NCBI RefSeq assembly: GCF_003334765.1
Contig: NZ_QOWT01000033.1
Direction: 5' to 3' (one strand)
DNA length: 44,004 bases
DNA from: Escherichia coli
GTDB taxonomy: Bacteria; Pseudomonadota; Gammaproteobacteria; Enterobacterales; Enterobacteriaceae
The notes under the pieces were generated by a model. It had not been told where the DNA came from, searched no databases, and was given only the letters and a program-made list of their open reading frames with translations. This document shows positions 2,829 through 8,931 of the stretch, one piece after another (within the stretch, counting starts at the first letter, position 1; each line of letters opens with the position of its first letter). Made by a program: the position numbers and the translations under genes.

Positions 2829-3182
2829 TTAAAATGTGAGCACTTTATCGGCTGACAGCGTCCATTGCGCCAGTTCCACAAGAGTACCGATTTCCACCCC
2901 ATCAATCAGAGGAAGTGTACTAATCCCGCGCCCGTCGGTACAGGTTTTGCACAATTTCACCGGTACATTCTGAGCGGTAAGGATCTCCAGCATTTGCTGA
3001 ATGTTGTAGCCTTCCCCTGGTTTTTGCCCGCGCAACCCGGCTGTGACCGCATCAGACATGAGGAACAGACGCAGATCCAGATTGCTCTCCTGCTCTCGTA
3101 ACGCAATGGCCAGCCGCAAGCTGTTAAACAAGGATTCGCTCCCGTAAGGTGCGCCATTGGCAACGATCACGATTTTTTGCAT
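2829..3182 (-). CDS. ychN: DsrE/TusD-like protein YchN
   Basis: 117-aa ORF (MQKIVIVANGAPYGSESLFNSLRLAIAL...). Confidence 0.9.
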   Translation of the reverse strand: MQKIVIVANGAPYGSESLFNSLRLAIALREQESNLDLRLFLMSDAVTAGLRGQKPGEGYNIQQMLEILTAQNVPVKLCKTCTDGRGISTLPLIDGVEIGTLVELAQWTLSADKVLTF

Positions 3183-3199
3183 TATTTACTCCTGTATTC

Positions 3200-3303
<104 letters not shown>

Positions 3304-3304
3304 T

Positions 3305-3344
<40 letters not shown>

Positions 3345-3366
3345 ATTACCGGAAGTTACCGACGTT

Positions 3367-4761
3367 TTGAGCCGTTTCGTTCCTCGCATTATCCCGTTTT
3401 ATTTACTCTTGCTTGTAGCAGGCGGTACAGCTAACGCACAATCTACCTTCGAGCAAAAAGCGGCAAATCCCTTTGATAATAACAATGATGGTCTGCCGGA
3501 TTTAGGCATGGCTCCCGAAAATCATGATGGGGAAAAACACTTTGCTGAAATTGTGAAAGATTTCGGCGAAACCAGTATGAATGATAACGGGCTGGATACT
3601 GGCGAGCAGGCAAAAGCTTTCGCATTGGGAAAAGTCCGCGACGCGCTTAGTCAACAGGTTAATCAGCACGTAGAGTCCTGGCTATCACCGTGGGGAAATG
3701 CCAGTGTTGACGTCAAAGTGGATAACGAAGGACATTTCACCGGCAGTCGTGGAAGCTGGTTTGTGCCGTTACAAGATAATGATCGTTATCTCACCTGGAG
3801 CCAGCTTGGTCTTACTCAGCAGGATAATGGGTTGGTGAGCAATGTGGGCGTTGGGCAACGCTGGGCGCGCGGCAACTGGCTGGTGGGTTATAACACTTTT
3901 TATGACAACTTGCTGGACGAAAATCTTCAGCGAGCGGGCTTTGGTGCCGAAGCGTGGGGCGAATATTTGCGATTATCGGCAAACTTTTATCAGCCGTTTG
4001 CTGCATGGCATGAACAGACAGCCACGCAGGAACAACGGATGGCGCGCGGGTACGACCTGACAGCTCGGATGCGCATGCCGTTCTATCAACACCTCAATAC
4101 CAGTGTCAGCCTAGAACAGTATTTTGGTGATCGTGTTGATTTGTTTAACTCTGGTACGGGTTATCACAATCCCGTCGCGTTGAGTCTGGGATTAAATTAC
4201 ACCCCTGTGCCATTAGTCACTGTGACGGCCCAGCATAAACAGGGTGAAAGTGGCGAAAATCAAAATAACCTCGGGCTGAATCTTAATTACCGCTTTGGTG
4301 TACCGCTCAAAAAACAACTTTCTGCGGGCGAGGTTGCCGAAAGTCAGTCGTTACGTGGTAGTCGCTATGACAATCCGCAGCGAAATAATCTACCGACTCT
4401 TGAGTACCGACAGCGAAAAACGTTAACGGTGTTTCTGGCGACACCGCCGTGGGATCTAAAACCTGGCGAAACAGTGCCGCTGAAATTACAAATCCGCAGT
4501 CGTTACGGTATTCGGCAACTGATTTGGCAGGGCGATACGCAGATATTAAGTTTGACGCCGGGCGCACAAGCCAACAGCGCGGAGGGCTGGACGCTGATCA
4601 TGCCTGACTGGCAGAACGGGGAAGGGGCAAGCAATCACTGGCGATTGTCTGTGGTGGTGGAAGATAACCAGGGGCAGCGTGTCTCCTCCAATGAGATCAC
4701 GCTAACGCTTGTCGAACCGTTCGATGCATTGTCAAACGACGAACTGCGCTGGGAACCGTAA
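3367..4761 (+). CDS. ychO: putative invasin/intimin-like outer-membrane protein YchO
   Basis: 464-aa ORF from a TTG; N-terminus looks like a signal peptide (RIIPFYLLLLVAGGTANA|Q). Exact start uncertain, no in-frame ATG nearby. Confidence 0.8.
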   Translation: MSRFVPRIIPFYLLLLVAGGTANAQSTFEQKAANPFDNNNDGLPDLGMAPENHDGEKHFAEIVKDFGETSMNDNGLDTGEQAKAFALGKVRDALSQQVNQHVESWLSPWGNASVDVKVDNEGHFTGSRGSWFVPLQDNDRYLTWSQLGLTQQDNGLVSNVGVGQRWARGNWLVGYNTFYDNLLDENLQRAGFGAEAWGEYLRLSANFYQPFAAWHEQTATQEQRMARGYDLTARMRMPFYQHLNTSVSLEQYFGDRVDLFNSGTGYHNPVALSLGLNYTPVPLVTVTAQHKQGESGENQNNLGLNLNYRFGVPLKKQLSAGEVAESQSLRGSRYDNPQRNNLPTLEYRQRKTLTVFLATPPWDLKPGETVPLKLQIRSRYGIRQLIWQGDTQILSLTPGAQANSAEGWTLIMPDWQNGEGASNHWRLSVVVEDNQGQRVSSNEITLTLVEPFDALSNDELRWEP

Positions 4762-5412
4762 TCAGAAAATGCGCTCCTGATGCACCCATACCGCTGCTTC
4801 CACGCGAGACTTGAGCTTCATTTTCTTCAGCATGTGCTTGACGTGCACTTTTACTGTGCTTTCGGTGATATCCAGGCGGCGGGCAATCATCTTGTTCGGC
4901 AAACCCTGGGCAATCAGCTTGAGAATATCGCGCTCGCGTGGGGTTAACTGGTTAACATCGCGCTCAGTAGTGGCACGGTTAGCGCGCAAGCTGGCGGCCA
5001 GAACAGGCGTTAATGCTTCGCTTAATACCATTTCGCCAGCAGCTGCCTGATGCAATGCTTTCAGCAGATCTTCCGGTTCCATATCTTTTAACAGATAGCC
5101 ATCCGCGCCGCGTTTCAGTGCGGTGACCACATCTTCTTCATGGTTAGAGACGCTGAATACCACAATGCGCCCTGAGAGGGACTTTTCGCGCAGTTTATCC
5201 AGCGTTTCCAGACCGTTCATGCCGGGCATATTGAGATCTAACAGGATCAGATCGGGATCAAGAGACTCCGCCAGTTCAATACCCTGTTCGCCATTACTCG
5301 CTTCGCCAACCACGGTGATATCTGGTGCCATACTGATAAGCTGTTTTACGCCAGTTCGCAGCATCGGGTGATCGTCAATCAGCAGGATAGTAGCCGGTTC
5401 CTGATTACTCAT
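4762..5412 (-). CDS. narL: nitrate/nitrite response regulator NarL
   Basis: ORF 4762..5526; recognised NarL begins at internal Met ([21 protein letters not shown]...), 216 aa; receiver domain plus LuxR-type HTH. Confidence 0.95.
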
Positions 5413-7201
5413 GGGTATCTCCTTGGACGTCTGTGAAAGTTTTTTCGGGAATAAAGGTGACCACCACTTCGGTGCCACCTGATTCACGACGGCGGACGCG
5501 GCAATCGCCTCGTAAACTTTGCGCACGATCGCGCATTATTATCATGCCGTAGTGATTGCTGCGGATGGCATTTTCAGGCACGCCGCAGCCGTTATCCTGG
5601 ACGGTCAGTTTGACCTGATTATCGTTTTGCGCCACCGTCACCACGACTTCACTCGCTTGCGAATGTTTGAGGGCGTTACTTAATGCCTCACGGGCAATTT
5701 GCAACAAGTGGATTGCCTGATGCGAAGGCACCAGGCGAGGCGGCAATTGATAATCCAGCTTCACCGGGAAGCCAAATTTGGCGCTGTACTCTTCGCAACT
5801 CGCCTCCAGCGCCGGACGTAATCCAGGCTCGGTGAGCTGCAAGCGGAATGTGGTGAGCAATTCACGCAACTGCGCCCAGGATGCATTCAGTTCGTTACGG
5901 ATCTGACTTAACAGTTCGCGGCTGCTTTCTGGCAGCGCATCGCCCTGCATCTGTAAACAACTCACCTGCATCTTCATGCAAGAGAGAGATTGGGCAATAG
6001 AATCATGCAGTTCGCGCGCAATGGTGGCACGCTCTTCCATCACGATCAACTGTTGCTGACGTTCCTGATGGCGATCCAGCGCCAGCGTGGCGGTGAGTTG
6101 TTCAACCAGGGTATCCACCAGTTGTTGTTGATCATGGCTAAGATGACGCCCCTGCGGCAGGGTCGCCAGCAAAATACCGTACTGCGTATGAGAGTCAGCC
6201 AGCCGCCACTTCAGGGTCGTGCCGCGATCACCAACGGGTAATACGCCGCGCGGGCAGAGCTGGCAGCCTTTATCATCACAAGTCATATCTGGCTGGCAGG
6301 TAAACTCCTGATGATTCTCTTCATCATCAGTGTCATACACCCGCAATTCGATATCACGTAGCAGGGTTAAATTCTGTAAGCCGTTGAGTACAGGTGACAG
6401 GCGTTCACACAGCGGGGCGCGGGAATGCAAACGGCGGTTAGCCTGCCATAAAAAAGAGAGGATCTGATTTTTATGCTCCAGCCCGGCGGTTTTCTCCTGA
6501 ACCCGCTGCTCAAGTACGGCATAACTTTCGGCCAGTTCTGCAGACATATTGTTCAACGCAGTTCCAAGCATCGCCATTTCGTTGCGCCCGCTGATGTTTG
6601 CGCGTTGGGTAAAATCGCGATGACTGACGGCACTCGCCATTGCCAGCAGTTGCCGCCACGGTTGTAGCAGTCGCGCCCGCAACCAGATAATAGTGAACAC
6701 CAGTAAAAGTGCCATAAATACCGCCATTACCCGATGGACCAGTACCACTGTCTCGATGCGCATTTCCGTGGTGCGGTCAAAACCAGATACCAGTTGATCA
6801 AGCCCGGCAACAAACTGGCTGACATCCGCTGACACCGTTTCTCGGTTTTGTGCACGCATCAGCGCAGGGATCAGTTCATTACGCCAGTAATCTTGTAAAC
6901 CCTGTAATTGCGCCAGTTGTCCGTCTCGTTCTGCTGCTCGAGTCAACTCGGCGCTAAATGCCGTTTGTTCCATCTCTTTAATTAAGGGCTTGTCTTTCTC
7001 GCTTAATGGCACTGCCGCCAACAGACGGTAACTTTGCATGCGCAGCGATCCCGCTTTGTTGATCGCATGGGCGCTGCCCTGAACGCCTTGCACCAGCCAG
7101 CCAGAAACCGCCATCCCTGCCAGTCCAATAGCAGTAGAAAGCAACACAATAAGCGCAACCTGATTAACCAGGGTGAGCGGAGAGAGACAACGTTTAAGCA
7201 T
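5405..7201 (-). CDS. narX: nitrate/nitrite sensor histidine kinase NarX
   Basis: 598-aa ORF ([21 protein letters not shown]...); stop codon overlaps the narL start by 8 nt. Confidence 0.95.
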
Positions 7202-7297
7202 GTAAACCTCTTCCTTCAGGCTTTAAATGAGCAATAACCTTAATGAATGTGACGATACATTCTGGAATGGCAGTATTCTCGGCTATTGGCTGAAGTA

Positions 7298-7324
7298 TAC
7301 CCATACCCGGAAAGAGTTACTCCT
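7298..7324 (+). promoter_or_regulatory. candidate NarL heptamers (TACCCAT, TACTCCT) upstream of narK
   Basis: Heptamers matching the NarL consensus TACYYMT seen in the narX-narK divergent region, roughly 200 bp upstream of the inferred narK start site. Confidence 0.5.
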
Positions 7325-7466
7325 TATTTGCCGTGTGGTTAGTCGCTTTACATCGGTAAGGGTAGGGATTTTACAGCACCGTGAAAAATCTCATAATTTT
7401 TATGAAGTCACTGTACTCACTATGGGTAATGATAAATATCAATGATAGATAAAGTTATCTTATCGT

Positions 7467-7480
7467 TTGATTTACATCAA
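7467..7480 (+). promoter_or_regulatory. FNR box TTGATttacATCAA (narK promoter)
   Basis: Perfect match to FNR consensus TTGAT-N4-ATCAA, about 60 bp upstream of the narK ATG. Confidence 0.75.
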
Positions 7481-7539
7481 ATTGCCTTTAGCTACAGACA
7501 CTAAGGTGGCAGACATCGAAACGAGTATCAGAGGTGTCT

Positions 7540-8931
7540 ATGAGTCACTCATCCGCCCCCGAAAGGGCTACTGGAGCTGTCATTACAGATTGGCGACCGG
7601 AAGATCCTGCGTTCTGGCAACAACGCGGTCAACGTATTGCCAGCCGCAACCTGTGGATTTCCGTTCCCTGTCTGCTGCTGGCGTTTTGCGTATGGATGTT
7701 GTTCAGCGCTGTTGCGGTGAACCTACCGAAAGTCGGCTTTAATTTTACGACCGATCAGCTATTTATGTTGACTGCGCTGCCTTCGGTTTCTGGCGCGTTA
7801 TTACGTGTTCCATACTCCTTTATGGTTCCTATCTTCGGTGGTCGTCGCTGGACGGCGTTCAGCACCGGTATTCTGATTATTCCTTGCGTCTGGCTGGGTT
7901 TTGCCGTGCAGGATACCTCCACGCCTTATAGCGTCTTCATCATCATCTCTCTGCTATGCGGCTTTGCTGGCGCGAACTTCGCATCCAGTATGGCAAACAT
8001 CAGCTTCTTCTTTCCGAAACAGAAGCAGGGTGGCGCGCTGGGTCTGAATGGTGGTCTGGGAAACATGGGCGTCAGCGTCATGCAGTTGGTTGCTCCGCTG
8101 GTGGTATCACTGTCGATTTTCGCAGTATTTGGTAGCCAGGGCGTCAAACAGCCGGATGGGACTGAGCTGTATCTGGCGAATGCGTCCTGGATATGGGTGC
8201 CGTTCCTTGCCATCTTCACCATTGCGGCGTGGTTTGGCATGAACGATCTTGCTACCTCGAAAGCCTCCATCAAGGAGCAGTTGCCGGTACTCAAACGGGG
8301 TCATCTGTGGATTATGAGCCTGCTGTATCTGGCAACCTTCGGCTCCTTCATCGGCTTCTCCGCGGGCTTTGCAATGCTGTCAAAAACGCAGTTCCCGGAT
8401 GTTCAGATTCTGCAATACGCTTTCTTCGGGCCGTTTATTGGTGCGCTGGCGCGTTCTGCAGGTGGTGCATTATCTGACCGTCTGGGCGGAACTCGTGTCA
8501 CGCTGGTGAACTTTATTCTGATGGCGATTTTCAGCGGCCTGCTGTTCCTGACCTTACCGACTGACGGGCAGGGCGGAAGCTTCATGGCGTTCTTCGCGGT
8601 CTTCCTGGCGCTGTTCCTGACAGCTGGGCTGGGTAGTGGTTCCACTTTCCAGATGATTTCAGTGATCTTCCGTAAACTGACAATGGATCGCGTGAAAGCA
8701 GAAGGGGGTTCTGACGAACGTGCGATGCGTGAAGCGGCAACCGACACGGCGGCGGCGCTGGGTTTCATCTCTGCGATTGGCGCGATTGGTGGCTTCTTTA
8801 TCCCGAAAGCGTTTGGTAGCTCGCTGGCATTAACGGGTTCGCCAGTCGGCGCAATGAAGGTATTTTTGATTTTCTATATCGCCTGCGTAGTGATTACCTG
8901 GGCGGTATATGGTCGGCATTCTAAAAAATAA
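7540..8931 (+). CDS. narK: nitrate/nitrite transporter NarK (MFS)
   Basis: ORF 7534..8931; recognised NarK starts MSHSSAPERATGAV... at the ATG at 7540; 463 aa. Confidence 0.95.
   Translation: MSHSSAPERATGAVITDWRPEDPAFWQQRGQRIASRNLWISVPCLLLAFCVWMLFSAVAVNLPKVGFNFTTDQLFMLTALPSVSGALLRVPYSFMVPIFGGRRWTAFSTGILIIPCVWLGFAVQDTSTPYSVFIIISLLCGFAGANFASSMANISFFFPKQKQGGALGLNGGLGNMGVSVMQLVAPLVVSLSIFAVFGSQGVKQPDGTELYLANASWIWVPFLAIFTIAAWFGMNDLATSKASIKEQLPVLKRGHLWIMSLLYLATFGSFIGFSAGFAMLSKTQFPDVQILQYAFFGPFIGALARSAGGALSDRLGGTRVTLVNFILMAIFSGLLFLTLPTDGQGGSFMAFFAVFLALFLTAGLGSGSTFQMISVIFRKLTMDRVKAEGGSDERAMREAATDTAAALGFISAIGAIGGFFIPKAFGSSLALTGSPVGAMKVFLIFYIACVVITWAVYGRHSKK

Follow-up and report, generated by a model that had tools for sequence, protein, structure and literature searches.

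The window analysed here, a stretch of 44,004 nucleotides of Escherichia coli DNA, contains a junction at which ychO and the terminal gene of the narXL operon face each other tail to tail. The features at this junction are:

3367–4761, + strand: ychO coding sequence, inverse autotransporter of 464 aa with a TTG start and a TAA stop, supported by the open reading frame list, the translation and RefSeq
4762–5412, − strand: narL coding sequence, response regulator of 216 aa with its TGA stop at 4762–4764, the protein being identical to WP_000070491.1
5405–7201, − strand: narX coding sequence, the upstream gene in the narXL operon, with an 8-nt overlap with narL
4759–4764, no strand: abutting stop codons TAA/TCA, read from the sequence and conserved in E. 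coli

Bases 4759–4764 read TAATCA, in which the TAA of ychO (4759–4761, + strand) directly abuts the TGA of narL, seen as TCA on the + strand. A reading made previously from the sequence only had described exactly this arrangement, two stop codons without a spacer, and it was borne out by the bases themselves, by RefSeq and by the complete E. coli genomes, 5,422 of 5,426 of which carry the 100-nt junction at an identity of at least 95%. RefSeq places ychO of MG1655 at 1273784..1275178 (+) and narL at 1275179..1275829 (−), which gives a spacing of zero; for the ychO/narL part, window coordinates are obtained by subtracting 1270417 from those of NC_000913.3. The DNA is that of a K-12-like E. coli, and positions 3200–5600 of the window were 100% identical to MG1655. 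Elsewhere, the window has no IS5U between ychE and oppA (16287–16565), and at about 28428–28431 it has a single tRNA-Tyr/RtT unit, versus tyrT plus tyrV in NC_000913.3, which makes it about 650 bp shorter; outside those differences, identity to MG1655 was 99.6–99.96%.

With an inter-stop gap of 0 nt, ychO and narL form a convergent pair of coding sequences without a spacer (inter-stop distance ≤0), and their gap was the smallest among the 8 convergent junctions of the window, the remaining seven of which measured 39–281 nt. A zero gap is not exceptional genome-wide, because 58 convergent overlaps of coding sequences have been counted in E. coli (Lillo & Krakauer 2007, PMC2174442). The convergent chaC/ychN junction (2786–2828) provides an internal contrast: its spacer of 43 nt contains the hairpin GGGGCGTCAGACGCCCC, and Term-seq has mapped a strong 3' end to 1273216(−), window 2799. 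Another Rho region, which lies antisense to chaC, was reported at 1272857(−), window 2440 (both PMC7815308). Between this junction and ychO, the sigma-54 binding motif TCGGTACAGGTTTTGCA (site IA11, PMC4591121) occupies window positions 2935–2951 on the + strand, antisense within ychN and 416 nt upstream of the ychO start; as it points toward ychO, it could be a ychO promoter.

The same sequence-only reading had argued that such a junction has no room for a terminator, and that transcripts from each gene must consequently run antisense into the other. A scan of positions 3000–7600 with a consensus terminator pattern returned 8 sites, compared with 5.0 ± 2.0 in shuffled sequences, and none of them was at the junction. 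When 300–350 nt of read-through RNA was folded for either strand, the energies were not below those of shuffles (z = +0.57 and +0.42), and neither pattern scanning nor folding of both strands revealed a credible intrinsic terminator in the last codons of ychO or narL. An Rfam scan of the whole window likewise gave no match at the ychO/narL junction, its matches being RtT and one tRNA elsewhere. Most of the local hairpins tested were weak or had no U-tract, and the sole one that folded better than shuffles, at 4485–4515(−) (−8.3 kcal/mol, z = −3.1), is short and situated past the Rho zone described below. Within about 100 nt 3' of the ychO stop, there is only one terminator-like site:

4830–4856, + strand: weak hairpin and T-run inside narL antisense (4830–4846 plus ACTTTTAC), with a 6-bp stem, −7.8 kcal/mol, z = −0.58

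This hairpin is probably non-functional as a terminator. A palindrome around the narL stop itself (RNA AUCAGGAG / UUUCUGAU, window about 4759–4779) is weak and is followed by no U-tract, and it is gone in species whose narL ends in TAA. In the absence of a spacer, no GC-rich hairpin with flanking A- and T-tracts lies between the two stops, as a bidirectional intrinsic terminator would have. Because there is neither intergenic room nor an intrinsic terminator, both transcripts have to continue into the facing gene, and this part of the argument held; for the narXL strand, it is shown experimentally by the bicyclomycin (BCM) data given below. What the argument overlooked is that a transcript can be ended by Rho inside the coding sequence of its neighbour.

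Rho-dependent terminators within the neighbour's coding sequence are a known solution for spacer-less convergent pairs. In Supplementary file 2 of Adams et al. 2021 (PMC7815308), a bicyclomycin-sensitive Rho termination region classed as 'antisense ychO' has its best coordinate at 1274961(−), which converts to window 4544, that is, 218 nt past the narL stop and inside ychO. DirectRNA-seq coverage in the 800 nt upstream and downstream of this coordinate was 101/6 without BCM and 649/408 with BCM, with a Rho score of 10.58 (p = 5e-14), so that read-through is increased by bicyclomycin. The coordinate stems from comparisons of 800-nt windows in one condition (LB), and the zone is therefore coarse, the exact site and the rut assignment lying below its resolution. 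In the curated Term-seq list of the same study, the interval between 1273216 and 1287242 contains no discrete 3' end, which suits diffuse Rho termination and modest or low expression; the narXL 3' end thus has neither an intrinsic hairpin with a U-tract nor a Term-seq peak. The features concerned are:

4500–4600, − strand: approximate Rho-dependent termination zone of narXL, at coarse resolution, with the published peak at window 4544
4605–4682, − strand: C-rich, G-poor tract in narXL-sense RNA, 41% C and 17% G, candidate rut site

The C/G ratio of the tract is 2.36, which ranks at the 99.5th percentile when every 78-nt window of the 44 kb is taken on both strands. Read along narXL-sense RNA (4682 to 4605), the untranslated tract occupies the stretch 82–160 nt after the narL stop, and about 60 nt separate its end from window 4544 downstream. 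We infer from this placement, which is the geometry expected of a rut site followed by a release site, that the tract serves as the rut site. In 60 loci that carry ychO, the equivalent tract has its peak a median of 95 nt beyond the stop of narL. The tract overlies the conserved YchO motif W-x-L-S-V-V-V-E-D, and may be a by-product of protein constraint. At third codon positions, 46 of 59 loci had a larger excess of G3 over C3 in the tract than elsewhere in the gene; both amino-acid composition and phylogeny confound this count. The test was rejected as evidence of nucleotide-level selection, since many residues of the region have codons that end in a purine and the species are not independent.

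Published total RNA-seq data on wild-type (WT) and rnc mutant cells (Huang et al. 2020, PMC7373196, Table S1c), in which an older annotation is used and ychO is named ychP, gave the following sense and antisense levels:

ychO, sense/antisense RPM: WT 8.6/5.5, rnc-14 9.9/10.7, rnc-38 6.4/9.8
narL, sense/antisense RPM: WT 72.5/1.6, rnc-14 76.9/0.86, rnc-38 27.8/2.1

The sense and antisense labels were taken at face value, since the Strand column of this table disagrees with the annotation for many genes; narL and narX, for example, are given as '+' and narH and narJ as '−', and the sense and antisense values nonetheless look sensible. Antisense RNA over ychO was about as abundant as the weak sense signal of this gene, while that over narL amounted to about 1–8% of sense. 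Read-through under laboratory conditions is therefore essentially one-way, from narXL into ychO. Double-stranded RNA captured by p19 was represented by 26–87 RPM over ychO and 2–10 RPM over narL (PMC7373196). The SMRT-Cappable-seq 2018 supplement has no entry for narL or ychO.

The junction was also compared across 80 narL loci of Enterobacterales, one genome per species, in each of which ychO homologues and both stop codons were located. In 62 of these species, ychO follows narL directly and in convergent orientation; the genera include Escherichia, Salmonella, Citrobacter, Enterobacter, Klebsiella, Kluyvera, Cedecea, Mangrovibacter, Serratia and Rouxiella. The inter-stop gaps were distributed as follows:

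−4 nt: 23 of 62 species, the commonest form
0 nt: 12 of 62 species
+1 to +11 nt: 19 of 62 species
+21 to +46 nt: 5 of 62 species
−48 to −54 nt: 3 of 62 species

A gap of −4 to +11 nt was thus found in 54 of the 62 ychO-bearing species other than E. coli. In the −4 cases, the shared stops were always CTAA, TTAA or CTAG, which is automatic when narL ends in ...TT(T/C) TA(A/G); four-nucleotide overlaps of two stops (CTAA, TTAA, CTAG or TTAG) are the modal convergent overlap in bacteria (PMC2174442). A variable tail of about 20 residues separates the final conserved motif of YchO, VVVED..GQRVSSNEITL, from the stop; together with the small gaps, this is the pattern expected of stop-codon drift where there is no spacer element to keep. 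In a metagenome-assembled genome (MAG; L016), Shimwellia (L054) and Entomohabitans (L055), no stop closes the ychO frame near that of narL, and the frame continues for 48–54 nt antisense to the narL coding sequence. The convergent overlap at these loci appears to be a longer one, and in the MAG sequencing errors may be involved. The three Kluyvera loci (L022, L035 and L037, about 6655–6697) have a 43–46-nt spacer between narL and ychO with the long inverted repeat TTAATTGTCGTGACAGG...CCTGTCACGCACAATTAA, possibly a bidirectional hairpin that was gained or retained in the genus.

Where ychO is absent, narL tends to be followed by a hairpin terminator: Hafnia, one Enterobacterales MAG and one Dickeya have a clear GC hairpin and T-run just past the narL stop, and GC-rich inverted repeats were seen by eye at other ychO-less loci, e.g., in Acerihabitans and a second Dickeya. 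In E. albertii NBRC 107761 (L004, 6652–6795), ychO is deleted save for its last 144 nt, with about 1.27 kb lost (window 3348–4617); the remnant adjoins the narL stop and keeps much of the C-rich tract, which is suggestive but concerns a single case.

Before these data are combined, two less favoured accounts of the junction need to be weighed. The abutment would be meaningless if the true stop or frame of ychO differed from the annotated one, or if the gene were decaying; the ychO entry has in fact been revised ('ychP' of U00096.2 has 1254 nt and a later start), the C-terminal tail of YchO past the last conserved motif is poorly conserved, and most of the gene is deleted in E. albertii. However, the revision touched only the start; the annotated stop is where the 464-aa open reading frame, whose residues 64–341 form an intact, full beta-domain (Pfam IAT_beta PF11924, E=1.5e-102), meets its first in-frame stop codon. 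Two of the more divergent E. coli strains sampled (97–98% identity) have ychO and narL annotated as abutting, with the same 1395-nt ychO coding sequence, the homologous proteins of 62 species stop at this point or a few residues from it, and the phenotype of a ychO mutant has been complemented in trans (PMC4787180). Both ychO and narL, the latter with its RefSeq-identical protein, are thus real genes with correct stops, so that a different true stop for ychO, which the sequence-only reading had named as a way in which it could fail, did not emerge, and an annotation artefact is highly improbable. The other account holds that intrinsic terminators are embedded in the partner's coding sequence, at 4830–4846(+) with its T-run for ychO and at 4448–4425(−) or 4508–4494(−) for narXL. 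These three terminator-like matches exist, the hairpin at 4485–4515(−) does fold better than shuffles, and intrinsic terminators are predicted for a minority of E. coli genes in convergent overlaps (only 20%, PMC2174442). The number of matches did not exceed that in shuffles, however, the stems are short and the U-tracts interrupted, no Term-seq 3' end has been reported at any of the candidates (PMC7815308), and the read-through is BCM-sensitive; we consider embedded terminators to be very unlikely.

A regulatory role of the junction deserves more attention. As a functional excludon, the spacer-less junction would be kept as a means by which transcribing either gene represses its partner, by collision of RNA polymerases or cleavage of the duplex by RNase III, coupling nitrate sensing to an adhesin. 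The pair is in the core list of ExcludonFinder 2025, among the 165 convergent overlapping pairs ('excludons') of MG1655 found in at least 50% of 58 RNA-seq datasets (PMC12288877), and the two transcripts do overlap (Table 1 of that study; 5–11 RPM antisense over ychO). At a zero-nt gap any 3' UTR satisfies the definition, however, so that this listing is close to automatic and reports overlap, not regulation. The captured double-stranded RNA and the near-equal sense and antisense signals over ychO would also suit an excludon, as would the conservation of the tight junction over many genera, which could come from selection and not drift; ychO is, moreover, reportedly induced in infected chick tissue (PMC4787180), and the balance might be reversed in vivo. 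Against this stand the small antisense fraction over narL, the parts of the p19 cluster and duplex tables of PMC7373196 that were available, in which ychO (as ychP) and the ychO/narL pair were not found, and the rnc mutations, which caused no clear rise in ychO or narL sense reads in the same data. Upstream of ychO there is only one isolated NarL heptamer (TACYYMT, 3187–3193), and the window as a whole has 31 such sites versus 22.5 ± 4.8 expected. A regulatory link from NarL to ychO was accordingly dropped, the heptamer being isolated and the count in the window not clearly above chance. Taken together, these data make a functional excludon unlikely. In a related form, the architecture would be a selected regulatory device, in which Rho-limited read-through from narXL caps YchO, induction of ychO in the host depresses NarL by polymerase collision, and the C-rich tract is kept partly for its rut nucleotides; its scope would be the gap of −4 to +11 nt seen in this survey in most Enterobacteriaceae and in Serratia. 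Such a device, which would link the control of nitrate respiration to adhesion, is in our view quite unlikely. A regulatory junction of any kind would tie nitrate sensing to an adhesin, and no finding here points so.

Our favored reading, at a probability of roughly three in four, is that two unrelated transcription units meet tail to tail in a compact junction, in which Rho acting inside ychO ends the narXL transcripts and the zero gap arose by neutral drift. According to this reading, no intergenic terminator would be needed: narXL transcripts would pass the narL stop and become untranslated, the untranslated RNA would expose the C-rich, G-poor tract 82–160 nt downstream, antisense to the 3' coding region of ychO, and Rho would then stop the transcripts roughly 200 nt inside ychO. 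In the opposite direction, transcription of ychO is weak in culture, and the part of it that reaches narL is negligible next to the narL mRNA. The stop codon of ychO would have drifted neutrally to its present position, with no spacer element to preserve. Directly shown are the anatomy, the BCM-sensitive termination region and the levels of sense and antisense RNA; we infer that the architecture has no regulatory role. The mutual transcriptional interference that the sequence-only reading had suggested is unsupported in laboratory conditions, because Rho limits the extension of narXL transcripts and read-through from ychO is negligible in culture.

The feature is real, ordinary and already known, in that the abutting coding sequences, the overlapping transcription and the Rho region are all contained in public annotation or published tables. 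The cross-genus survey adds no more than two points: the tight junction is ancient, and it obeys the general rule for convergent overlaps. The pair may serve as a textbook case of spacer-less convergent genes terminated by Rho inside the neighbour's coding sequence, and is otherwise of little wider importance. A practical consequence concerns gene deletion. For a delta-ychO mutant of avian pathogenic E. coli (APEC), one recombination arm was the last 50 nt of narL to its stop, window 4762–4811 (PMC4787180); as this arm ends at the narL stop, the cassette replaces the whole narXL 3' UTR and the Rho termination region. Precise ychO deletions thus remove the 3' untranslated and termination region of narXL, and possible effects on narL need to be controlled for.

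Several known systems resemble the ychO/narL junction to different degrees. Bidirectional intrinsic terminators, such as that of chaC/ychN, likewise end two transcription units that face each other; chaC/ychN does so with a 43-nt spacer, a GC-rich hairpin and a strong Term-seq 3' end, whereas ychO/narL has neither spacer nor hairpin. With the excludons (PMC12288877), ychO-narL shares the RNA-seq coverage on which they were defined; the regulatory meaning of the concept would come from reciprocal expression and RNase III dependence, and the overlap here is strongly asymmetric. The likeness to Rho-terminated 3' read-through and antisense regions (PMC7815308) extends to the listing of the region itself, the C-rich, G-poor tract upstream and the lack of a discrete Term-seq end. 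Convergent overlapping or abutting pairs, as explained by the stop-codon-mutation model (PMC2174442), are similarly arranged tail to tail with no spacer and mostly without intrinsic terminators. The two stops of the E. coli pair abut (gap 0) and share no bases, in contrast to the modal shared-stop overlaps; otherwise the pair is alike, and among its relatives, 23 of 62 have the modal gap of −4 itself.
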